Of a DNA stretch of 64,000 nt, positions 40,216 through 63,390 are shown piece by piece; the first letter of the stretch is position 1; each line of letters opens with the position of its first letter. A model generated the notes under the pieces. It worked only from the letters and a program-made list of their open reading frames with translations, did not search any database and was not told where the DNA came from. A program made the position numbers and the translations under genes. The stretch comes from a virus: IMG/VR virus record IMGVR_UViG_3300024518_002836, positions 4,076 through 68,075 of that record, one strand, 5' to 3'.

Positions 40216-40998
40216 TATGAGGGACTAGCAAAATCTTTTTTGGGCTATTGATTCTATTTCCAGGATAAGGATACATTGATTCAACTAAGGATGAACATAA
40301 CTAGGGGTATTGTTTGTTTGTAATGGTCTAGATTAGTGGGCCAAAGTATCGTTAAAGTATAGTATGAGAGTAACATTAACCTAAGCGATGTTATACTAGA
40401 ATATGAGTTAACTTAGGACGAAATCATCATAGGAGGCATTAGGTATTAAGATGGCGGTTGAACGGGTAAGGTTTCTTTCGTTCATTTTGACAATTAGCCT
40501 AATTAGCCAATTAATTTCTTTTGATTTAAAAATCGGTGCAAAGCATATGGTTGGGTTAAATACTCCAATCCGTTATCCAACCATATGGAATTAAGTGGCA
40601 GAGAGTCTGCGTAAAGCGGCTTATATGGTGATGCTAAAATATAAGACGTAGCAGCGTCTGACACTGCCTTCCTTAAGGCTAAAGATACGCTATTCGCGTA
40701 TTTGCTACGCAACCATATGGTAAGTTGTTTGTGAACTATAATGAAATGAGAGAGTGAAACGTGAAGTTCGTAAGTATATGCGAATAGCATATGATGAAGA
40801 AGTTCCCGAGTGTAATTAATATGTGAACACATTGGGCTGGCTGTTAGGGTTTGGCGGAGTTACCTTATTAGGGGTCATATCTTTATTAAGTATCAGCGTT
40901 ATAATAACACTAATATCTTATAAAGGACCATATGGTGGTACTTTGGTACACCCCATTATCAAGGTTAACAAAACCTATCTTATGCGGAGACACAAAAA

Positions 40999-41196
40999 AT
41001 GTTCTTTAATCGAAGAATCACAGCCTTGAATGTTGAATCAACATTCACACTCAAGATTGGGCACGACAGAAACATGAACTTGATTATCAAGGAATTGAGC
41101 GTAAAGGCGGATAACGTCGATGACTTGATTTTGCAGGTAAAGGATGCTTTGGAACAATTCAACGCCATGAAGGTTGAACAAATGCTAGGTGAATAA
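40999..41196 (+). CDS. Hypothetical early protein
   Basis: GGAGA SD; first gene after an ACCATATGGT/TATA-like element. Confidence 0.55.
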   Translation: MFFNRRITALNVESTFTLKIGHDRNMNLIIKELSVKADNVDDLILQVKDALEQFNAMKVEQMLGE

Positions 41197-41757
41197 GATG
41201 ATATGCAATCACATGAATTACACAGAATCAGCGCACGAACGAGCATGGAACCCAATGACAGGTATTGTTGAATTTCGATTCATTCAAATCTGCCTAGATT
41301 GTGGCAAACAATGGACTCTTGATAATCTGGAGGACTGAATATGAAGACACACGAAGAAATGCACGAATTGAGCCTAACCGAATTGAAGGACTATATTCAA
41401 GGCGTTTGGAGCCATCTTTATGATGCACAGGCAATCAGAGAGTATCGAGTAAAGATTGGCGAACCGAACCTATTGGCTGCACCGACTGAAGTTGAGTTTG
41501 AAGAAGAGGAAGAAGAATGATTTGTGGTATTTGTGACGGTTGGATAATAAACACGCATAATTGGTCTGATGAGGAACAATGTGATTGTAAGGAGGAAGAG
41601 GAATGAATTATTATGAATTTATGGAAAGCCCACACCATGCTTTAGATGTTATTGCAGATTTAATACGATTTGAGGCATCACCTGAAGAACAAACCGCATG
41701 GCTTAAAGCAGTTATTAAATTAGGATTTGTAGAAAACATGGAATTGGAGGAAGAAGA

Positions 41758-41946
41758 ATGAGTATATTTCAAAGGCAGCATTATGAGGCAATTGCGGAGT
41801 GTTGTGGTTACATATCTACCGTAAAGGGCCGTGAAATGGTCGTTGAGTCAATGATTAAACTGTTTGAGCGGGATAATCCTAACTTCCAACCTGATAGGTT
41901 CAGAGAAAGGGTCAAACAATACGCAGAAGGCATAATTATGCGTTAA
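41758..41946 (+). CDS. Small conserved-type phage protein (RQHYEAIA...DNPNFQPDRF)
   Basis: Motif DNPxFxxxRF seen in small phage early proteins; SD present. Confidence 0.55.
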   Translation: MSIFQRQHYEAIAECCGYISTVKGREMVVESMIKLFERDNPNFQPDRFRERVKQYAEGIIMR

Positions 41947-42077
41947 TAGAAGAGGGAAAGACATGAATGATTTTTGGATAATATTCTTAGTAACACTCGG
42001 TTTACTCGAAATAGTATTTTGGGCAGCAGCGTGGAGATATGCTAAGAAAGTGTGGCTTAGACTAATGGGGATTTCTC

Positions 42078-42407
42078 ATGGGAAATAGAGGTAAACGCAG
42101 TAGAGAGCGATGGGTTCCCAGACAGGAACAAAAGGGCTTAGACAAAATAGAACGACGAAAGATAGCACAGGAAGAAATTGAAGCAGAAGTGAGGAATGCT
42201 TTTTATTCAGTCGAAGGTGAATGTCGTTCATGTGGGTCAAAGGAAAATGTATTGGAAACCGATAAAGTATTAACAGGTGGAAGAAGACATAAATTATGTC
42301 AAGAATGTTTAGATTACATACTAAAAAAAGTGAATAAAAGGAGAGAGTTAAATGTGGAAAGCAGGAACAAAAATGGGAAAGAGCCTAAAAGCACGAACAA
42401 GGAGTAA
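42078..42407 (+). CDS. Zn-ribbon hypothetical protein
   Basis: CRSC...CQEC. Confidence 0.55.
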   Translation: MGNRGKRSRERWVPRQEQKGLDKIERRKIAQEEIEAEVRNAFYSVEGECRSCGSKENVLETDKVLTGGRRHKLCQECLDYILKKVNKRRELNVESRNKNGKEPKSTNKE

Positions 42408-42559
42408 TGCGCTCCGAGAGGAAAGAAAAAAGCGTTATTTCGCTTCTTTTAAGAAAAAGATTTAATTCTTTTTCCCTTCGGGGTTTTTAATCCAAAGTAT
42501 TACCTACCATATGGTAACACTTTGTTACCCCACTTTAAATCACCTGTTATCCTTCTTAT

Positions 42560-43100
42560 TGTCCGTGGATGCAAACATGGACACGTTGTGGCTGAATAAT
42601 CTCTTTATCAGAGATAAAGCACACGTCGCAGATTCCGTAGCCGGAACGACTTGAGCCAATCTGGGGAAAGTCAAGAATACTTCGGTATTCGCCTTTTAGC
42701 GAGGCCAGCGAAAACTCATAGTAACGATATGGGGCGTGGTTGGAAGTAACCCTCGATTCTTTTTGCGCAAATCAAAAGAAACGAGATAGGGAGAAAACTT
42801 GAGAGAAGGCGCGTTAATCGGCGCGTAGCCTCTTCAACACCTACTTATCCCCACGGGATGAAAACAGTAGAAAGGTATCATACTGAGAGCAATTTTGGTC
42901 AATAGCGCTACTGAAAGAGTCATGAATCTTTCAGATATCTTCGCACCGAATAGACACTTTGATGCAAACCTGTTGGATTCCTATCCCTTTCCTGAGAGTG
43001 CGTCTAAAAAATGTTTAGGGCAAATCCTGAAGAACATTTATCGCTCTCTTCCCCGAAAAGACAAGATACCATCAACAGTCAACAGGCTAAGTAGTGCGGG
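42560..43100 (+). ncRNA. Candidate large structured non-coding RNA (~550 nt)
   Basis: GC-elevated, no credible ORF, many hairpins including GAATAC-TTCG-GTATTC, nested long-range helices, TATA-like TTTAAAT at 42534. Confidence 0.5.
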
Positions 43101-43132
43101 CTTGAGGAAAAAAAAACAGGAGATGACACAAA

Positions 43133-43495
43133 ATGACCAATTTCGTAAATATGACAGCACACCCAATCAACATCATGAATGACAATATGACCATTCCCTT
43201 TGTCATTGAACCGAGTGGTGAAGTAATTCGTTTGGATGAAGAATGGAGCAACCGCGCTAACGACGAATCTGTTGAATTGAATCTAGAAAATGGTGAAATC
43301 TTCAATCTCACAATCATGCATTGCAAATACACGGCTTCTGGTAATATTCCTGAAAAGGTCGAAGGCACGGTTTACATCGTATCTGCGATGGTTGCAAATG
43401 CTTACCCATATCGAGAAGATTTCTTGATTCCCGCAAAGATGGTAAAGGACCACAATGGCCGCATTCGCGGTTGTCAGGCCCTTGCTCACGTTTAG
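43133..43495 (+). CDS. Conserved-type hypothetical phage protein (NMTAHPI...IVSAMV...GRIRGCQAL)
   Basis: Motif pattern NxTxHxI / YIVSxxV / GxIxGC; SD present. Confidence 0.65.
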   Translation: MTNFVNMTAHPINIMNDNMTIPFVIEPSGEVIRLDEEWSNRANDESVELNLENGEIFNLTIMHCKYTASGNIPEKVEGTVYIVSAMVANAYPYREDFLIPAKMVKDHNGRIRGCQALAHV

Positions 43496-43637
43496 TGGGT
43501 CAGGGCCCCATTAAAACTCAAAGTTTTTAAGACCCATATGGTAGCACTTTGGAATAAATAAAATGTCCCCGTTCTCACTAACGAACAAATGCTAAGTTTG
43601 CTCGAAAGTGAGAATAGGGTGGAGAAGGGAATTACCC

Positions 43638-44180
43638 TCACTCTTCTTCTTCGCCTCCGTCGGCTTCAGAAGATTCCGGCGCTGAAATCACCGGAATATG
43701 TCCATTCATGCTACCATCCCAACAAATAGCATCGCTATCGCCATTGAGATGATTTCGGTAGTAAGTCGTGAGTCGAGACTTCATGGATTTGAGGAGAGTT
43801 GCCTCATATTCCTCCAAATCCTCGTATGTTCCACCCCCGGACTTACCATGCTTCCGAACGATTTCACCATAAAGAGGGTCCGTCGCAAAAGGCGCAGCGA
43901 ACGCTGCTGCATATTGCGCAGAAATCGTTTGAATCGCCTGTTGGATTTCGTCGGGTAGGCTGCTTTCGCGGCCGCGCGAAATCGGGCTGTTCGGAAGCAT
44001 CGCAAAAAGGTTCGTGATATTCGTCCAGAACCTTTTTCGGTTTTCGGGGTCATTTCGGCCTTGATTGAGATTCCATTCAATCACGGCTTGCATATCGCCT
44101 ACGTCGTTATTCTCCAAATGAAGGAGAACCTTATTTTCGTTCTTTGACCATTTCTGGTCATCCATTGAGTAGTCTGCCAT
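43638..44180 (-). CDS. Early-region paralogue family, member 1
   Basis: SPISRGRESSLP, KHGKSGGG and WDGS shared with 46287..46775; probable start at 44180. Confidence 0.7.
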   Translation of the reverse strand: MADYSMDDQKWSKNENKVLLHLENNDVGDMQAVIEWNLNQGRNDPENRKRFWTNITNLFAMLPNSPISRGRESSLPDEIQQAIQTISAQYAAAFAAPFATDPLYGEIVRKHGKSGGGTYEDLEEYEATLLKSMKSRLTTYYRNHLNGDSDAICWDGSMNGHIPVISAPESSEADGGEEEE

Positions 44181-44748
44181 TTTCATCATCACATCCATTT
44201 GTTCAGTAAGTGGGATTATTCCCTTCTCCATTAGTAACTTTGGCGTGAGTTTGATAACGGGGAACATTACATTTGCCCAAAGTGCATCCATATGGTTGTG
44301 GTAATAATGAAATTATACCTTGACTGAAAGGAATCCTTAATGAGGCTACTGGTATGTTAATTGTGCTATTCGCCCAATTCTTTTCATACCACCGCCATAT
44401 GGTAGGAGGTTGTTAATGGTTTAGTATATGATAAGGCCGTTAGGCTCATTGATACAAACCTTTAACTTCTGAACTAAGCGTTAGCGGTCCTTAAAAAAAT
44501 AATTGGGGTAACTTTAACGGGCTACGCCCGCAAGTTTGCTTTATCTGCTATTCGCAGATTCACAAATCAGTTACCATATGATTGTGTAACAAGATACGCG
44601 AATAGTGTATCGTATCCGTAGAAAAGAAAAAACTTTATTGGGGATTCGTTCCTCAACCTTAAATTCTTTAAAGGCAACCATATGGTAATGGAACTTTGTG
44701 GATTACCCTATAATAGCACAAAAATCGTATTTACTGGAGCGAGTGAAA

Positions 44749-45135
44749 ATGAGCAGCGAACGACATGATACACGAAAGACAATGATTGAGGCAATCATCG
44801 AGGATAACGAACATCTCTCAGACGAGAAGAAAGAAGAATTGGCGAACCTCTGGGCAATCCCGGCAAATACCCCGGAAATGCAGAAAGCCATCTGGGACGG
44901 CACACGGCAGATTCTGAAGGGCGTCGAAGGTGTCGATATCAGCATCAATGCGAAAGAGGCCGAGTTTGCCGGAGTCAAGGACTCTATCATTTCTCACCTT
45001 CAGGCTGCATATAATGTATGCCCTGAGTTTTTCCTTCAGCGCGGCGTTAAGGGTGTTTATCTCCCCTATGACGATTCTATCGAAATGCCTAATTCAGTCT
45101 GGGATATCTTCATGGGACGACAGAAGAAGGCCTGA
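44749..45135 (+). CDS. Early-region paralogue family, member 2 (divergent)
   Basis: QKAIWDGTRQILKGVEG resembles QERVWDSIKSMIRGLDG. Confidence 0.6.
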   Translation: MSSERHDTRKTMIEAIIEDNEHLSDEKKEELANLWAIPANTPEMQKAIWDGTRQILKGVEGVDISINAKEAEFAGVKDSIISHLQAAYNVCPEFFLQRGVKGVYLPYDDSIEMPNSVWDIFMGRQKKA

Positions 45136-45457
45136 CTACACTCAAGACCCCCCATACGACCGCAGAAGGGCAAATTGCCCTTCTGTGTGTCAATGGGGTG
45201 GTTTTAATTTCAAAGTGTAAACCTACCATATGGATAGGAAAATTGAGGTCGGTGAGGCGAATTGACTAAATATGCGAATAGCATATAGTCATTTAGCGTA
45301 GCGTGAGCCGTAGACCCGTATTTAGCGAAGCGGTCCGTAAGCGAAGCGGTCCTTATTTTGGGGTCAATCAGTAGATTCAGTCGAAACAATAATGATTCTT
45401 AATGAATGCAGAATCATTACTCCTTCATCTTATACATGCAACCATATGGTGAGTGGC

Positions 45458-45643
45458 TGTATTAAGTTATGCGTAGCAAATACGCGAATAGTGTATGGTT
45501 AACTTAATACAATGAACGAATGCCCAAATTAAGGTTTATTAATATGCTATTCGCATATTAGCCTAAAGGCCCAACCATATGGTTAGTAGGCATTAAACTA
45601 TTGCGAAGCAAATATGCGAATAGTATATGGTATAGTTTAATGC
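45458..45643. repeat. Two 30-nt conserved cores, each enclosed by a different 12-bp inverted repeat
   Basis: TGCG(T/A)AGCAAATA(C/T)GCGAATAGT(G/A)TATGGT at 45470-45499 and 45602-45631. Confidence 0.85.
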
Positions 45644-46286
45644 AATAAGACCTTAAAAAACAATTAAGGTCTAAACACTATTATTAAGTATTAATGTCAT
45701 AATAACATTAATATCTTATAATAGGACCATATGGTTGTTCCTGCGAGAGATGGCCTCTTTTGAGCGGAAAGCCTCTAACCCATCTAAACGCTATACCGAG
45801 AGCCACCAAAGAAAACTTACTCGAATATGTTGGGTAGTAGGAAAGGGGTCAGCCCAATTGACATATACAATATCCTATACCATAGTGGATAAGATATAAG
45901 TATTGAATATAGTTATATTACGGGTGCGCGCAATTAGATTAGAATAACAGGGTTTTGACTAGGAGGGAGGTGTCACGCGTGACAATGTTCTGGATGAGTT
46001 TCAAACGAGTTTCAAAAGAAGGCTAAAGATTGTAATGGTTGAAAATGAATATAGTATTGAGTGGGCCGTGGTGCCGAAGTGGTGTGATATGGGGCGAAAG
46101 TCAGGGGTGCTTTGAATGAGATATTAGGGTGAACATGAGGCAGAATGTATCAATATCATGTGTATCAATGTAAAGCCTACACCTATTCCTTTATATGGCG
46201 TTGCGGTGAACGTGATTATGCCCCGCAACGGGTATATGATTTAGATAGATGATAATTAAAACACCAAACAATTGAAGGTGAAAAAG

Positions 46287-48048: not shown

Positions 48049-48222
48049 GGGCCATTGGCGCAGTTAGGTAGCGCATCGGGCTTTTAAGGGGTTTATCGAA
48101 TAATAAGGAGAAAATCTTTTCCGTACATCGAGATAGTAGTTTCAATTATTTGGTTGTTTCCACTATGAACTTCTTTCCTCGAAGATACCCGATGGTCGTG
48201 GGTTCAAATCCCACATGGCCCT
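48049..48222 (+). tRNA. tRNA-Lys(UUU) with 100-nt BHB intron (48087-48186)
   Basis: Acceptor GGGCCAT/ATGGCCC, D arm, TCGGG-CT-TTT-A|intron|A-CCCGA, T loop TTCAAAT; BHB helix CUUU/GAAG with two 3-nt bulges. Confidence 0.85.
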
Positions 48223-50771: not shown

Positions 50772-52017
50772 AGAAGTATTACCTAGAAGGTCGTTGAAAG
50801 AAGGACGTTGGGATAAAATATTGAAAGCACGAATGATAGAGTTATCCGTAGCAGATAACTATGATGATTGTAAGCATGAATGGATTGTTACCGGCGAAAC
50901 TTGGTATATTCCTTTTGTTGAAGAAGCGGGTATGGTTTTACCTGATTATCATAATGTTCATGCTCATGAATGTCTTTGTGGTCATCCTATTGTTTGGCAT
51001 TTTGAGATTGAAAATACTGAGAATGGTCATAAGGATATTGTGGGTTCAGAACATATTGAATCATACATGGTCATTAGACATTTAGAGGCTAAGGGCATTG
51101 ACCCTACTACTATTACTGAAGACATGATTGATAAGTGGGTTTCAGAACAAATTAAATCTCTTAAGGCTAAATGGTGGTGGGACTTGCATGGTGAACAATT
51201 TGAAGAATGGTTTGCTCATATTTCTGATTTAGATTTGCGTGTGAATGTTAGGCCTAAAGGTCGTCGTTGGGACTATTCAACTCGTCAATATGAAAATGAA
51301 CACGTTATTCGTAAGCGAGCCGAAGGTAAGTTTGGACAACCCGGATATAAAATGGCTAGTATTGTTTGGCGATGGAATCATGAAGATAATACTCGGAATC
51401 AAAGAGATGGTCGAGGCTATCCTAATGAACGCTTGTGGAATGATTTACAAATGTTCTATATTACAGCACAGCGCCATATAACACGTCTTAATGAAGAGGA
51501 TGAAAAAAGAGCAGCCCGGCTTGAACTTCTTAAGGAGCAAGAGCGTATAAATGAACTTGCTAGACAAGAGAGATTAGAGGCTAGTCGAATCTTTAGAGAA
51601 GAGGCTCGACAAAGAAGAGAAAAGAACGATGCAAAGGAAGCAGAATTAGATGGGGCGCGTGAACAAAAGCGACTCAATCGAGCAATTGCTGCTAGAATTA
51701 ACAATGAAGGGGCAGACGAGAAGTTTTCCGATGCTTGTGAATACTATGACATTCCTACTTTCTCTGCTCAACTTGGTCATAATGATTGGGAGAGAACTTT
51801 TTTGTCTGATATGATTACACAACTTTCAGATGGAAAGGATTTGTCAGAAGCACAACTGAATCGGTTGCGAAAGATTGTAATTGATGAACCGTTACCTGCT
51901 ACTGATAAGCAGATTTGGTATATTAAGAAATTAGCAGTAGATGGATATACTCCCCCGGAGGGATTAACTCGGACTGAGGCTAGTATTCTAATTAATGAAT
52001 TAAAGGGGGGTGAATAA
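50761..52017 (+). CDS. Hypothetical protein (418 aa)
   Basis: CLCGHPI motif, coiled coil, C-terminal ATDKQ..YI..L...LTRTEAS.LI.EL module. Confidence 0.65.
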   Translation: MEFEEVLPRRSLKEGRWDKILKARMIELSVADNYDDCKHEWIVTGETWYIPFVEEAGMVLPDYHNVHAHECLCGHPIVWHFEIENTENGHKDIVGSEHIESYMVIRHLEAKGIDPTTITEDMIDKWVSEQIKSLKAKWWWDLHGEQFEEWFAHISDLDLRVNVRPKGRRWDYSTRQYENEHVIRKRAEGKFGQPGYKMASIVWRWNHEDNTRNQRDGRGYPNERLWNDLQMFYITAQRHITRLNEEDEKRAARLELLKEQERINELARQERLEASRIFREEARQRREKNDAKEAELDGAREQKRLNRAIAARINNEGADEKFSDACEYYDIPTFSAQLGHNDWERTFLSDMITQLSDGKDLSEAQLNRLRKIVIDEPLPATDKQIWYIKKLAVDGYTPPEGLTRTEASILINELKGGE

Positions 52018-53259: not shown

Positions 53260-53456
53260 AATTGAGAATTTTGAACGAAACCGGACATACTGAATTAGTA
53301 GTTAACACAAGCGAAGTAATTGACCAAATTAATGACCACCCGACACATTGGGTGTTTGTTGATGGCGAGATGGTTTCCCGTGAAACAGTTAATACTGTGA
53401 ATTGGGATGAAGTCGAGCAAGTAGATTTAACCCCCGCAATTGTTGGTGGGTATTAA
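53256..53456 (+). CDS. Ubiquitin-like (beta-grasp, SAMP/ThiS-type) protein precursor
   Basis: 66 aa; WVFVDGEMV and VDLTPAIVGG-Y C-terminal di-Gly; strong SD, own TATA-like box and terminator. Confidence 0.75.
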   Translation: MKLRILNETGHTELVVNTSEVIDQINDHPTHWVFVDGEMVSRETVNTVNWDEVEQVDLTPAIVGGY

Positions 53457-53469
53457 TCTATGATGTGGG

Positions 53470-53502
53470 GAGAGGACAGTTAATTCTGTCCTCTCTTCAT
53501 TT
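53470..53502 (+). terminator. Hairpin terminator after the Ubl gene
   Basis: GAGAGGACAG-TTAATT-CTGTCCTCTC followed by a pyrimidine tract. Confidence 0.55.
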
Positions 53503-53562
53503 CTAAATAAATGGACTACTCTTCGGGGTAATCCATGTATTTTAATTTAGAGAGGGGGAAAT

Positions 53563-53970
53563 TTGACAGAAAAATATAATTTTTTATCAATAGATGCTCT
53601 CGAAATGATTTTATCTCAATTGGGTTGGAATTATTCTAATTCTTTAAACGATATTATAGGTGAACATCAATCCTATTCTTTAAAGAGGATTCCATTCAGG
53701 GCGGATTTCTACCCACCCGGATGGAGATTAGCAGCATCTAAAAAAGCAATAATTATTTCTGATGGAGAAACAGAAATAGAATATAAAGGAGAACTATTTT
53801 ATTCTCCGTGGGAAATCTTTGACCGATTTGGTGAAGATTCCCTGTTAGATATTAACAATTGGAACTTCATTGTTGAACGTCAATGGTTAATTAGGAAATT
53901 AAATGGAGATTGGGTGAAATCATTCACGTTATTAACGGAATGCCCATTCAGAACAGTAATAAGGTGTTAA
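53563..53970 (+). CDS. Hypothetical protein
   Basis: TTG start with GAGGGG SD. Confidence 0.5.
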   Translation: MTEKYNFLSIDALEMILSQLGWNYSNSLNDIIGEHQSYSLKRIPFRADFYPPGWRLAASKKAIIISDGETEIEYKGELFYSPWEIFDRFGEDSLLDINNWNFIVERQWLIRKLNGDWVKSFTLLTECPFRTVIRC

Positions 53971-53972
53971 AA

Positions 53973-56132
53973 ATGTTACCAGATGAAAAACCGTGGGTGC
54001 AAAACCTACTACAACAACGATATTATCAAAAGGAAGAATCTACATGGCCGCAAATATGCCAACGTGTAGCGTCTTTAGGTAAAACGGCAGAAGATAAAGC
54101 AGCATTTTTTAATTATTTGCTACATTGTGATTTCCTACCTAATAGCCCGACATTGTTTAATGCGGGAACAGGTAAGGGAAATCTATCTGCGTGTTATGTA
54201 TTACCAATGAAAGATTCATTAGAAGAAATTTTTGATTCTACTAAAAATACCGCATTAATCCATAAATATGGTGGAGGAACTGGGTTTGATTTTAGTAGAA
54301 TTAGACCAGAAAATTCTCCGGTTGGTGGAACAAATCAAGTAGCATCAGGACCACTTTCATTTATGAGAGTTATTGATGCTAACACACAAGAAATCAAACA
54401 GGGAGGAAAGCGTCGTGGAGCAAATATGGCGGAATTACGTATTGACCATCCTGACATTATCAAATTCATTAAGATGAAGCATGAAGAAGGAACACTATCT
54501 AATTTTAATATTAGTGTGAGTGTTACTGATGAGTTTATGGAGCAATTTCAGAAATACCCTGATGACAATTTTGTTGCAAAGTGGAATGATGATTTTTTCC
54601 TCATTACTTTAGAAGACGATGAAGTTATTCCTGTTAGCCCTAGCACAGTTATAGAACAATCAGAAAAGACTAAGCATTATACCTATCGTCAAGTTTGGGA
54701 TTTGATTGCTCAATCAGCATGGGAATGTGCAGACCCCGGTATTATTTTCATTGATAGGATTAATGAGCAAATGCCAGCAAGTTACTTGGCTTGTGAAGAA
54801 TACCTAGAAGAAACTGGAGATGACTTAACTATACGCGCAACTAATCCTTGTGGTGAACAGCCACTTCCTGATTATGGTTCTTGTAATCTTGTTGCGCTAA
54901 ACATTGGTAATTTCGTTATTAAGGGCCAAATGGATTGGAAGGCTCTTCAAGAAGCAATTAAGTATGCTTATCGTTTAGGAGAAGCCGTGATTGATAGTAA
55001 TGTTTATCCTATTTCAGAAATCGAATCGCATAGTCGTGCGTATAGAAATATCGGAATCGGAGTTATGGGCTATGCTGATGCGTGTATTCTATTGGGTATG
55101 AAGTATGGTCAAGAAGACGCTTTGGCGTTTGGTGAAGAAGTAATGAAGTTCATCTATAAATGGACGTTTGTTGAGTCTGTTGATTATGCTGAAACATTTG
55201 GAGCATTCAAGGGTTGGGAATATGGAGACTATCGACCATTAATTGATAGAAGACAACTTCCACCGGAAACGCGAAAGAAGTATAAGGCAACAGGGATTAG
55301 AAACATTTGTTTGACTACTATTGCCCCAACAGGTAGTATTGGTTATATTGCAGATTGTTCCACCGGAATTGAGCCACATTTCGCGGCCCGCGTGTTCCGT
55401 ATTGACGAGTCAAACCCTGAAGGCACATGGATTACTACCCCTCTCGCGGCACAATACCCTGAAGTATTCGTTACAGCCCAAGATTTGCCCATTGATGAGC
55501 ATATTGCTACTCAAGCGACATTTCAAAAGTGGGTGGATTCGGGCATCAGCAAGACCATCAATATGGATAGTGAAGTTACTATTGAAGATGTTAAACGGGC
55601 ATATATGCTTGCTTGGGATGCTAATTGTAAAGGTGTGACTATTTATCGAGATGGGTCCAAATCTAAACAGGTGTTAAATACTAATGATAGTACATTTAAA
55701 CCAAAGGACTTAGATGATATTAGCGAGGCGGTTAGATTTAGATTACCTGCTGAGGGATTAGATGATGAGTTTATTTATATTACGGTGTCTCATAATAGTA
55801 ATCAACCTATTGAAATGTTTGTGAATTATCCTTACTTAAATAGGCCTTCAATCGAACACACTCAAAAGCGAGAACAATTAGATAGTATTTCTAGACTTAT
55901 TTCTGTTGGACTACGATACCATATTCCGTTAGATAAATTGATTGAACAATTAGAGAAATCAAAGGGTTCTATGCGTGGAACAGTAGCACAGATTTCAAAT
56001 GTATTAAAAGAATTCGCATCAAGAAGTGACGACCCGTATACTGAAAAATGTGTAGATTGTGATAATGGGAGTATGATATTTCAAGGTGGTTGTGCGACCT
56101 GTAATGAATGTGGACATTCTGAGTGTGGTTGA
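53973..56132 (+). CDS. nrdJ: Class II (B12-dependent) ribonucleotide reductase
   Basis: FLPNSPTLFNAG, SACYV, GGGTGFDFS, GGKRRGANM, ATNPCGEQPL, TIAPTG; C-terminal TSCPD-like domain and Zn ribbon; no NrdB in the window. Confidence 0.92.
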   Translation: MLPDEKPWVQNLLQQRYYQKEESTWPQICQRVASLGKTAEDKAAFFNYLLHCDFLPNSPTLFNAGTGKGNLSACYVLPMKDSLEEIFDSTKNTALIHKYGGGTGFDFSRIRPENSPVGGTNQVASGPLSFMRVIDANTQEIKQGGKRRGANMAELRIDHPDIIKFIKMKHEEGTLSNFNISVSVTDEFMEQFQKYPDDNFVAKWNDDFFLITLEDDEVIPVSPSTVIEQSEKTKHYTYRQVWDLIAQSAWECADPGIIFIDRINEQMPASYLACEEYLEETGDDLTIRATNPCGEQPLPDYGSCNLVALNIGNFVIKGQMDWKALQEAIKYAYRLGEAVIDSNVYPISEIESHSRAYRNIGIGVMGYADACILLGMKYGQEDALAFGEEVMKFIYKWTFVESVDYAETFGAFKGWEYGDYRPLIDRRQLPPETRKKYKATGIRNICLTTIAPTGSIGYIADCSTGIEPHFAARVFRIDESNPEGTWITTPLAAQYPEVFVTAQDLPIDEHIATQATFQKWVDSGISKTINMDSEVTIEDVKRAYMLAWDANCKGVTIYRDGSKSKQVLNTNDSTFKPKDLDDISEAVRFRLPAEGLDDEFIYITVSHNSNQPIEMFVNYPYLNRPSIEHTQKREQLDSISRLISVGLRYHIPLDKLIEQLEKSKGSMRGTVAQISNVLKEFASRSDDPYTEKCVDCDNGSMIFQGGCATCNECGHSECG

Positions 56133-61603: not shown

Positions 61604-61843
61604 ATGAAAGCGTATGGACATTGGGTGTTACTCCAACATACTAAAGATGAAACTGATTCTGGGATTATTAGTAATCAAGGGGCAGCGATGGAAGTAATTT
61701 CTGTGGGAGCAGAATGTCCACCATCCTTTCATAATTTAGTAGGTAAGAAAATCTACTATAAACAAAGCCGTTCCGCTATTGAGATGGGTGGCTATATTTG
61801 TATTGAATGTAGAGATGTGATGTATTCGGAGGAAGTAGTATGA
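61604..61843 (+). CDS. groES: Co-chaperonin GroES-like
   Basis: KAYGHWVLL..ETDSGII..EVISVG..VGKKIYY; directly upstream of groEL. Confidence 0.75.
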   Translation: MKAYGHWVLLQHTKDETDSGIISNQGAAMEVISVGAECPPSFHNLVGKKIYYKQSRSAIEMGGYICIECRDVMYSEEVV

Positions 61844-63390
61844 CTGAAATTTTATATGGTGAATCTGCAAGAGTGAAATTATTAGAAGGTATTAATTTAG
61901 TATCTGATACTATTAAATGCACGTTAGGGCCACAGGCTCGCACGGTAATTTTAAAACAAAATGGGGTTCCTGTCATTATTAATGATGGAGTAACTATTGC
62001 TAAGGCCGTTACAAGTGATGATGAATTTATTCAAATGGGAGTGGAATTGCTTCAACAGGTTGCTTCACAGGCGCAAGAGAATAGTGGTGATGGAACTACT
62101 ACTGCTGCAATTATAGCACAATCAATTTGTGAATTTGCCCTTAATTCGATTATCGAGGGGGCCAATCCTATTAAATTAAAGGCCGAACTTGACTCCTTAG
62201 TAAAGGGTACTCTTCTAGAATTAGATAATATGGCGGTGCCTATTGATAGCCGAGAAATGCTTGAGAATGTTGCTAGTATTGCAGCGAATAATGACCCACA
62301 ATTAGGAGAATTAATTGCTGATGTTGTCGAAGCCGTAGGAAAAGACGGTATTATTTCCGTCGAAGACGGTCATAGTCTTGAGACTACATTTGAAGTGATT
62401 GAAGGGATGGAATTAGATAATGGATTCATGAGTCACTTGATGGTTAATAATGATGATGGAACCCATTGTGTGTTTGAGGATTGTCTAGTCTTAATGTCTA
62501 ATGAAACAATCAATAATTTCCAAGAACTTCTCCCTGTATTAGAAGTAGCAGTTTCAGAAAAGAAACCATTAGTCATCATGTGCAAGGAATTAGAAGGAAC
62601 CGCTTTTCCAAACTTGCTAGTAAATGTAATGCAGAAAACACTTAAGGTATGCGCAATTAAAACGCCAGATTTTGGTGATGAGCAAATTGAAATTCTTAAA
62701 GATATTCAATCTATGATTGGGGGTCACGTATTCAATGCGGATTTGGGAGATAAGATTTCTAATGCGACTTTAAATGATTTAGGAGTGATTGATAAAATTA
62801 GCATTGGACGTTCAAAAAGCACATTAATTCATGATGCTAATGAGCATCAAAAAGAAAGTATTTCTGATAGGGTCTTTGCTCTCAATAAACAAATGGAGGC
62901 TCAAACTAACGATTGGTATAAAGAAAAAATTCATCGTAGGATTGGGCGATTATCAGGCGGAGTCGCTTTAGTAAAGGTTGGTGGTTCAACTGAAATTGAA
63001 TTACGTGAAACTAAAGAGCGGTTGGATGATGCGTTAAATGCGACCACGGCCGCAATTCAAGAAGGCGTTGTTGTAGGCGGAGGATTAGCATTGTATAATA
63101 TCTCACTATCTTTGGAATCTCCATATGCCTTTTATAGAACTGCTCTCCAAAGACCAATTAAGCAACTGGCTGATAACTCAGGAGTAGAACTAGATATAAC
63201 TCAATTAGATGCTTGTGTAGGATTTGATGCTAATTCCAATACATATCGAGATATGTGGAATGCTGGAATTTTAGACCCAGTTAAAGTAACAAAAAGCGCA
63301 TTGGTTACGGCGGCGTCAATTGCCGGATTGGTTATTACAACTTCAGTATTGATTGCTCCCGATGAAGAGGAATTACCTCCGATGTATTAG
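61840..63390 (+). CDS. groEL: Group I chaperonin GroEL
   Basis: TLGP, INDGVTIAK, GDGTTTA, GGVALVKVGG.TEIELRETKERLDDALNAT, GILDPVKV. Confidence 0.93.
   Translation: MTEILYGESARVKLLEGINLVSDTIKCTLGPQARTVILKQNGVPVIINDGVTIAKAVTSDDEFIQMGVELLQQVASQAQENSGDGTTTAAIIAQSICEFALNSIIEGANPIKLKAELDSLVKGTLLELDNMAVPIDSREMLENVASIAANNDPQLGELIADVVEAVGKDGIISVEDGHSLETTFEVIEGMELDNGFMSHLMVNNDDGTHCVFEDCLVLMSNETINNFQELLPVLEVAVSEKKPLVIMCKELEGTAFPNLLVNVMQKTLKVCAIKTPDFGDEQIEILKDIQSMIGGHVFNADLGDKISNATLNDLGVIDKISIGRSKSTLIHDANEHQKESISDRVFALNKQMEAQTNDWYKEKIHRRIGRLSGGVALVKVGGSTEIELRETKERLDDALNATTAAIQEGVVVGGGLALYNISLSLESPYAFYRTALQRPIKQLADNSGVELDITQLDACVGFDANSNTYRDMWNAGILDPVKVTKSALVTAASIAGLVITTSVLIAPDEEELPPMY

Follow-up and report, generated by a model that had tools for sequence, protein, structure and literature searches.

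Between the stop codon of a 109-amino-acid (aa) open reading frame (ORF) at 42407 and the ATG of a 120-aa ORF at 43133, the phage DNA analysed here contains a non-coding gap. This DNA, hereafter the window, is a stretch of 64,000 nucleotides (nt) of a 68-kb IMG/VR virus record (IMGVR_UViG_3300024518_002836; CheckV completeness 72%). Judging from comparison with relatives, the gap very probably encodes a real and conserved structured RNA on the + strand, of a kind that is not in Rfam. Our preferred reading, to which we assign a probability of roughly 55%, is that positions 42556-42995 specify an independent, trans-acting structured non-coding RNA (ncRNA). The phage is marine and uncultured, and in its variable early region promoter motif, RNA and terminator-like 3' helix would form a self-contained cassette, directly ahead of the 120-aa ORF, whose predicted product resembles Crn4-type ring nucleases. 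An earlier note, made from the letters of the window, had already proposed an undescribed large structured RNA at this place. This proposal is borne out, as the scores of all Rfam 15 families stay below gathering level with the RNA of the window or of either of two homologues (L086 and L208, described below), and compensatory changes are seen in both homologues.

The same note had described the stretch as non-coding and elevated in GC, and both statements hold. All six frames are interrupted by stop codons across 42408-43135, the only ORFs there being of 47 aa (42511-42654) and 95 aa (42895-43182, TTG start), and the GC fraction is 0.44-0.45 versus 0.34-0.41 in the flanks. Also the sequence motifs that it had listed are found where it placed them: the 5' hairpin P1 at 42560-83, GAATAC/GTATTC at 42675-90, CTGAAAGA/TCTTTCAG at 42911-34, GGTATC at 42874 with GATACC at 43065, and GAGAGC at 42885 with GCTCTC at 43043.

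Homologues were looked for among the terminase relatives of the window, of which IMG/VR holds 240, a family of ~90-100-kb marine phages. The search covered 79 records from the best 80 of the 240 terminase loci (L076 was excluded), using blastn on 50 records and covariance models of the 5' domain (R1) and the middle domain (R2) on all 79. Only one record (G004, terminase 85% identical) carries the RNA, all other model matches being partial and reaching at most 17 bits. Its RNA locus, L086, is read on the reverse strand and is 70% identical to the window over 42584-42862, and the homology spans from a conserved UAUUGUC on the 5' side to GCAAACCUG..GAUUUCC at the 3' end. A third copy, on a metagenome contig (L208), is 95% identical to L086 across 322 nt and divergent beyond. 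Full-length homologues therefore number two (L086 and L208). In addition, contigs from X5 and X8, which belong to the four marine runs compared with the window, contain pieces that are 85-95% identical to the window version. G002 (terminase 90% identical), the closest nearly complete relative, has no RNA homologue. Given a single carrier among 79 relatives and the lack of the RNA in G002, we regard the RNA as a rare accessory element.

An 18-mer common to the window and L086 had one real match (L208) among 108 metagenome stretches, one (G004 itself) among seven IMG/VR stretches and none among 60 stretches of GTDB genomes. A gapped DNA pattern returned 29 IMG/VR stretches, with the known G004 locus as the only real one, and two other 18-mers gave a chance match alone (L004) and nothing, respectively. 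A stretch with 27 nt in common (L105) is AT-rich, belongs to a giant-virus bin and looks coding; by our own reading it was judged a chance match. In the INPHARED collection of cultured phages, neither blastn of the RNA nor megablast of the 12 kb around it found anything.

To describe the conserved secondary structure, RNAalifold was run on the three sequences (42556-42862 and equivalents). The predicted consensus consists of 84 pairs in 15 helices, and 94.8% of its 248 pair cells are paired. Covariation among the collected homologues is evident: 20 pairs are changed on both sides in three sequences from two lineages, compared to 7.0 +/- 2.0 in shuffles (0 of 500 reach 20) and to 0-3 when the 3' partners are slid by 1-3 columns. 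The alignment folds at -60.5 kcal/mol versus -38.9 +/- 4.0 for 100 column shuffles (z -5.44 on the + strand, -3.98 on the - strand). The consensus structure holds 30 G-U cells and 2 A-C cells, and this 30 to 2 excess fixes the strand as +. Contig variants from outside the derivation of the model agree with it. Both 42614 A>G and 42732 G>A retain pairing, the latter converting a U-G pair of domain I to U-A, and 42618 A>T is the state of L086, where the partner has changed as well. The weak parts of the model are helix 15 in domain II, with 66.7% of cells paired, and portions of helices 7 and 13.

At the level of single helices (Table 1), P1 is found at the same place in L086 and L208 with an unrelated distal sequence (CUGAGGCU-UAGC-GGCUUCAG), one A-U pair being G-U in L208. 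The word GATGCAAAC, which the earlier note had seen twice, does occur twice (42568-76 and 42961-69), but the repeat is not conserved, the P1 loop being different in L086 and L208. The closing helix P2 reads GUUG/CAAC in the window versus GUCG/CGAC in L086 and L208, with one pair changed on both sides. In P3, a U-A pair at 42593/42618 becomes A-U, and an 18-nt block is identical between the window and L086. The hairpin CTTTATC/GATAAAG that had been suggested at 42603-19 gives way here to an overlapping one, AUCUCU/AGAGAU (42599-604/42610-15), which is kept in all three sequences; the A>T at 42618 in the relatives breaks the pairing of the former. Domain I shows GAAUAC/GUAUUC versus GAUAAC/GUUAUC and UUCCG/CGGAA versus UUCCU/AGGAA. 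In domain II, AUGG/CCAU in L086 corresponds to GUGG/CCAC in L208, which is a double change between sequences that are 95% identical.

Table 1. Positions of the candidate RNA, its helices and the adjoining elements in the window
Feature	Position	Strand	Basis or remark
Whole candidate ncRNA, conserved core and variable 3' domain	42556..42995	+	Homology to L086; G-U/A-C strand bias
Conserved core, ~300 nt	42556-42860	+	5' hairpin P1, then closing helix P2 enclosing two multi-helix domains, 12 more helices in all
P1 hairpin, UGUCCGUG/CAUGGACA, 8-nt loop	42560..42583	+	Hairpin in 3/3 sequences
P2 closing helix, 4 bp, GUUG/CAAC	42585..42588 with 42835..42838	+	100% of cells paired
P3 stem-loop, GAAUA/AA internal loop	42591..42620	+	Helices 3 and 4; sequence highly conserved
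Domain I, helix CACGUC/GGCGUG around five hairpins	42622..42738	+	Helices 5-10; 11 pairs changed on both sides
Domain I hairpins	42633-46, 42648-72, 42675-90 (invariant UUCG loop), 42691-705, 42715-32	+	RNAalifold
Domain II helix AAGU/ACUU, inner CCC/GGG and variable hairpin	42744-47/42797-800	+	Domain II as a whole: helices 11-15
Domain II helix GAGA/UCUU, inner G+C hairpin	42801-04/42831-34	+	Domain II in total 42744..42834
P7 local hairpin AUCCC-CAC-GGGAU	42847..42859	+	Mutually exclusive with P8
Variable 3' domain closed by long-range P8, then pyrimidine-rich tail	42855..42981	+	P8 = 42855-59/42977-81 and 42864-67/42970-73
Variable spacer / 5' untranslated region of next ORF, AGGAG before ATG	42996..43132	+	Outside the conserved RNA
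Crn4-family (Crn4b-like) ring-nuclease homologue, 120 aa (candidate)	43133..43495	+	Fold and sequence-profile match
Promoter-associated motif CCATATGGT-N-CACTTTG (full CCATATGGTAACACTTTG)	42507..42524	+	Directly 5' of the RNA; repeated element
Next CCATATGGT..CACTTTG copy	43534..43551	+	Marks the end of the RNA-ORF unit

Beyond the core, the 3' domain is more variable. P7 lies within the minimum-energy fold of the 3' part of the window and appears in L086 as UUCCC..GGGAA (A-U to U-A), and P8 is retained in L086 with two pairs changed on both sides. The two helices have the GGGAU strand in common and similar energies; in all three sequences the design is such that the G-run of P7 can alternatively pair with a distal pyrimidine stretch, thus forming P8. 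After P8, a U-run (UUUAUUUUUUU) follows in L086 and only UAUCCCUUUCC in the window. In the case of L208, the 3' end is an analogous helix of 11 bp with U9 behind it (fold z -4.39), so that a stem and U-run stand 3' of the RNA in two of the three sequences. Downstream of L208 there is no same-strand ORF but a convergent gene. In L086, the U-run is followed by a second promoter-type motif (CCATATGA) and then by a homologue of the 120-aa ORF. Because both homologues end in a stem and U-run, one of them without a downstream gene, the element gives the impression of being a separate RNA gene.

The 3' border could be narrowed down with the X8 relative, in which a contig joins 42996 to 43096 via 52 other letters that replace 42997-43095. 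As L086 and L208 also have no counterpart of 42997-43095, we treat 42996-43132 as a variable spacer. This shortens the earlier estimate of ~550 nt, reaching to 43120, to a conserved RNA of ~450 nt that ends near 42995 and has a core of ~300 nt. It also removes the long-range architecture proposed at the time: two nested pairs (42874/43065, 42885/43043) and one crossing pair (42969/43080) have their partners in the spacer, where they are replaced or have no counterpart in the relatives, and are hence not conserved. A second crossing pair, GATAGG/CCTATC, is by our own reading not complementary in L086, which leaves the pseudoknots unsupported.

On the 5' side, the promoter-type motif lies ahead of the RNA in all three sequences, ~50-55 nt upstream of the conserved UAUUGUC. 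It belongs to a set of repeats: 12 of the window's 13 copies of CCATATGG fall within 40581-45734 (0.86 expected), and the extended form CCATATGGT..CACTTTG has 6 matches versus 0.42 expected. On account of this clustering, we interpret the motif as a repeated promoter/operator-type element of the early region at the gene-strand switch. The palindrome CCATATGG, often extended to CCATATGGT-N3-ACTTTG, stands where small transcription units begin, and related phages have it too; it is likely an early promoter or operator and possibly a cassette boundary. Between motif and RNA, -10-like boxes can be recognized (TATAAT in L086, TTTAAT in L208). Fits to a sigma-70-type or a Bacteroidota-type promoter were discarded, since by our own reading no consistent spacing applied across the motif copies. 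As one consistent promoter geometry could not be fitted, we infer the start site of the RNA from its surroundings, near 42545-42560. L086 has an equivalent motif behind its crn4 homologue, and in L208 it comes directly after the terminator of the RNA.

A second repeat of ~22 nt, with a conserved GCGAATAG core and variable flanks, has five copies at 40774, 44592, 45268, 45478 and 45610. These lie mostly in the ORF-poor region 44292-46271, and the core is also present in the relative G002 (L330, about 2060-2080), so that the repeat has an iteron- or origin-like appearance. The repeated DNA motifs of the region fall outside the RNA core and not inside it.

The 120-aa ORF has no Pfam match and only PHROGs of unknown function. 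An AlphaFold2 model of the protein, built with 10 homologues, has a predicted local distance difference test (pLDDT) score of 92.3. In a Foldseek search this model matched Crn4 chains only (E 6e-11 to 8e-8, template modelling (TM) score 0.66-0.77), the next match having an E of 0.5. A sequence profile searched against the PDB with hmmsearch likewise found Crn4b (E 1e-16) and Crn4a (E 6e-12). Crn4 degrades the cyclic oligoadenylates (cOA) of type III CRISPR (short palindromic repeats, clustered and regularly interspaced) systems, and its phage orthologues were proposed to be anti-CRISPRs (PMC12830947, in part). Its conserved residues are T13, H15 and R112 in Crn4a numbering (same source, in part). 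The corresponding T8 and H10, i.e. the T-x-H motif, are invariant in all 11 rows of our alignment. By our own mapping, the column of the catalytic arginine (Crn4a R112 / Crn4b R103) holds Arg in 9 of 11 rows and Lys in the window protein and its closest relative (P0004), and the stacking arginine (Crn4a R92) is Ala in the window protein. Altogether, we regard the 120-aa protein as a candidate phage anti-type-III-CRISPR enzyme.

Two other explanations of this ORF were tried and dropped. A split gene had been considered because the ORF matched longer PHROG profiles in their C-terminal half; these matches are explained by N-terminal extensions that some Crn4 orthologues of phages possess (PMC12830947, in part). 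In a 166-aa relative (P0005), the additional residues result from a 1-nt difference at 43130 by which the frame of the spacer is fused, which we read as a gene-calling artefact. The idea of a recoded gene was rejected.

With respect to the association of RNA and enzyme, the crn4 proteins of the window and of L086 are 33% identical and each is encoded 3' of the RNA. Crn4 homologues occur in 2 of the 79 related records, in G004 directly after the RNA and in G030 elsewhere and without the RNA. An IMG/VR search with the 120-aa ORF found two distant loci (32% identity), neither of them with the RNA upstream, and the same search of metagenome contigs found none. Since the RNA is found by itself in L208, and crn4 by itself in G030, L002 and L003, the linkage is not obligatory. 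The adjacency is noteworthy all the same.

Taken as a mechanism, the preferred reading would involve transcription from the CCATATGG..CTTTG promoter-type motif and release of a discrete ~430-470-nt molecule that would act in trans. Our best guess at its task is host takeover or counter-defence, the RNA possibly binding a host or phage protein as decoy or scaffold; this guess comes from the location of the RNA, which is part of an accessory region and has a Crn4-type ring nuclease directly downstream of it. What favours an independent RNA are the terminators, the copy that stands alone and a layout like that of a cassette.

Several points weigh against this interpretation. The decoy function in trans is a best guess drawn from context. 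Full-length sequences are three, from two lineages, and as the structure was derived from the same data, both pair-count controls are biased in favour of structure. The claim that the stretch folds better than chance stands in one respect only: the single + strand sequence beats its dinucleotide shuffles (z -3.08, 0 of 100 as good; - strand z -1.21), but its energy corrected for base composition ranks 92nd among 424 windows of 450 nt (z -0.68), which is ordinary for this genome. As thermodynamics alone would not single out the stretch, the case for structure rests on the comparison with relatives. In the window, in L086 and, by way of a bridging contig, in the X8 relative, crn4 comes directly after the RNA, an arrangement that also fits cis-regulation. 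Finally, in the window no canonical + strand terminator follows the RNA and no promoter motif stands between RNA and ORF, so that there the RNA may be no more than a leader.

A cis-acting leader or riboswitch-like element of the Crn4-type gene, whose core would sense a ligand or factor and in which the choice between P7 and P8 would decide on transcription into the ORF, is the alternative to be taken most seriously, though we consider it rather unlikely. It is favoured by the repeated crn4 adjacency and the P7/P8 alternative: the RNA keeps its place immediately 5' of crn4 on the same strand in the window and L086 despite 33% protein identity, the X8 contig joins the 3' end of the RNA to the start of the ORF, and P7 and P8 compete for one strand at similar energies. 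The missing separate promoter motif and canonical terminator in the window speak for it as well. So does the resemblance of one stem-loop to a portion of manA, a marine phage RNA that is an orphan candidate for a riboswitch (PMC2864571, in part). In its boldest version, the core would sense cyclic oligoadenylate. Set against this are L208, in which the RNA has a strong terminator and is not followed by an ORF, and L086, in which a second promoter-type motif separates the U-run from the ORF. The crn4 homologues of G030, L002 and L003 do without the RNA, and a P8 'terminator' that encloses >100 nt would be atypical. Moreover, most aptamers are smaller than a ~300-nt core with about 13 helices. 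The suggestion of a structured leader of 43133..43495 may therefore be right for the window, but it is not general. In the window the two possibilities may even hold together: the weak 3' tail probably permits read-through, and the independent RNA would then also be the 5' part of the ring-nuclease mRNA.

A more speculative extension, which we regard as a long shot, is that RNA and Crn4-type gene form one counter-defence module. Either a cOA aptamer would switch on the ring nuclease via P7/P8 upon a type III CRISPR or CBASS (cyclic-oligonucleotide-based anti-phage signalling system) alarm, or the RNA would soak up the signals or a defence protein. If true, cOA sensing by an RNA would be seen here for the first time, or else a large structured RNA would be at work in anti-defence.

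That the RNA is a divergent and expanded member of the manA family (RF01745) seems very doubtful. At E<=10 in 42300-43300, manA is the one weak Rfam match inside 42556-42995; four other weak matches at 42330-42508 lie upstream of the RNA and are unrelated. It is the sole family matched in both lineages and has a marine and phage association (PMC2864571, in part). Its scores are far under the gathering score of 55.2: for the window 19.5 bits, with an E of 0.015 when 1 kb was searched and of 0.93 when the whole window was, and for L208 9.7 bits. In L086 a larger search gave no match at E<=1. The alignment covers P1 and P3 in the window, the P3 module corresponding to model positions 25-60, also in L208. 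In both of these sequences the first inner stem-loop of manA, with its UGAAUAA/UAA internal loop, is aligned with high posterior probability. By our own reading, the closing helix as aligned (CGUUG with CAGCG) is not complementary in L086, whereas the partner that does covary is located 125 nt further along. The cmscan alignment has deletions in place of the other stems, and the rest of the model, ~130 positions, is either deleted or without alignment. Membership was thus rejected on score and junction topology. Since manA RNAs, too, come from marine phages, the two may be distantly linked or have a module in common.

It is also very improbable that the gap holds no functional RNA and is a DNA-level regulatory or origin-like spacer with incidental helices. 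The surrounding 5 kb are full of repeated DNA motifs, folding energy is ordinary, and G002 has at the position of RNA and crn4 (L330 1512-2708) 1.2 kb without ORFs that are rich in the same motifs and contain no RNA homologue. Opposed to this are the 20 compensatory pairs with slid controls near zero, a 30:2 asymmetry of G-U over A-C that is not expected for DNA palindromes, and the position of the repeated motifs outside the core. A ribozyme had been among the suggestions of the earlier note. A self-splicing intron or other ribozyme, for which only size and number of helices speak, is hardly credible, given no match to group I, group II or small-ribozyme families at E<=10, terminator-like hairpins upstream, a ribosome-binding site and ATG downstream, and unrelated flanking ORFs of which the upstream gene varies.

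What makes the preferred reading worth following is that large structured phage RNAs are few and the role of almost all is unassigned. The present RNA adds a candidate class that comes with a structural model, defined borders and a suggestive neighbour. A phage-borne ring nuclease of Crn4 type would break down the type III CRISPR second messengers, and should the RNA act together with the enzyme or regulate it, this would be a new RNA-based counter-defence or cyclic-nucleotide sensing. The compact cassette of promoter motif, ~450-nt RNA and terminator is amenable to direct synthesis and probing. More generally, variable early regions of uncultured marine phages would harbour RNA genes that protein-centred annotation overlooks.

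Regarding the genome as a whole, the phage encodes a terminase, a portal protein, a class II ribonucleotide reductase, a GroEL-like protein and tRNAs, and public runs with near-identical sequence carry seawater or marine metagenome labels. Terminase best matches among the cultured phages of INPHARED are Bacteroides phages at 25% identity, too distant for naming a host. Upstream of the RNA, the 109-aa ORF is followed by two terminator-like hairpins, one of them listed on the - strand, and this upstream neighbour is not the same gene in L086 and L208. Neither the 109-aa nor a 217-aa neighbour protein has relatives in the IMG/VR protein search or among solved structures. The latter (43638-44291, - strand) has no Pfam or PHROG relative either; in related phages it has up to three paralogues per genome, and it is present in 24 of 38 records searched.

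Further away, 53910-56132 and 61840-63390 encode the ribonucleotide reductase, with a C-terminal TSCPD domain, and the Cpn60/GroEL-family chaperonin, respectively. The most negative composition-corrected folding of 450-nt windows (z -2.4 to -3.5 on both strands) is located at 45245-45994, a repeat-rich stretch, and at 53345-53794, where strong terminator-like hairpins follow an ORF upstream of the ribonucleotide reductase gene. The only matches of the window at Rfam 15 gathering level are four tRNAs. An Rfam tRNA match at 48049-48222 (+ strand, 55 bits) spans 174 nt and received no call from ARAGORN. By eye, it is a tRNA with the anticodon loop CUUUUAA (Lys, UUU) and an insert of ~100 nt just 3' of that loop, possibly an intron-bearing phage tRNA. 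A sub-threshold Hammerhead_HH9 match at 51884-51929 (+ strand, 20.5 bits versus gathering 52, E 2) is probably due to chance.

When set beside known systems, the RNA shares features with several of them and differs from each in some respects. Long multi-helix non-coding RNAs of unassigned role, such as ROOL, GOLLD, OLE and raiA, are similar in kind, and ROOL and GOLLD occur in phages. The present RNA differs from these and from HEARO in that no match was obtained at E<=10, and in being smaller (~450 nt) and rare (1 of 79 related records). Classes of riboswitches that sense cyclic nucleotides exist for c-di-GMP, c-di-AMP and cGAMP. A leader with a terminator-like element ahead of a gene acting on cyclic nucleotides would follow an analogous logic, whereas here there is no Rfam match and L208 carries the RNA without a downstream gene.

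In the case of manA, which is almost exclusively marine and phage-associated and an orphan riboswitch candidate (PMC2864571, in part), the likeness is that of a marine phage structured RNA with a multi-stem junction, in which a stem-loop whose internal loop is of GAAUAA/UAA type comes after a 5' hairpin. The differences lie in size (a core of ~300 nt versus 192 model positions), in the closing helix and other stems, which do not correspond, and in location: manA is found in 5' untranslated regions of metabolic genes, in T4-like cyanophages (PMC2864571, in part), whereas the present RNA belongs to an accessory part of the early region and can occur by itself. RNA anti-CRISPRs (Racrs) are small mimics of CRISPR repeats (PMC10651486, in part). 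Like these, the present RNA is a phage non-coding RNA in an anti-defence context, adjoining a candidate anti-CRISPR ring nuclease; unlike them, it is ~450 nt long and matches no CRISPR-DR family at E<=10, though it may still mimic a repeat of its host. The neighbouring protein, in turn, resembles Crn4 (PMC12830947, in part) in fold, in the retained T-x-H motif, in having the size of Crn4b and in the reported phage-borne orthologues, and departs from it in the lysine and alanine that replace the catalytic and the stacking arginine.

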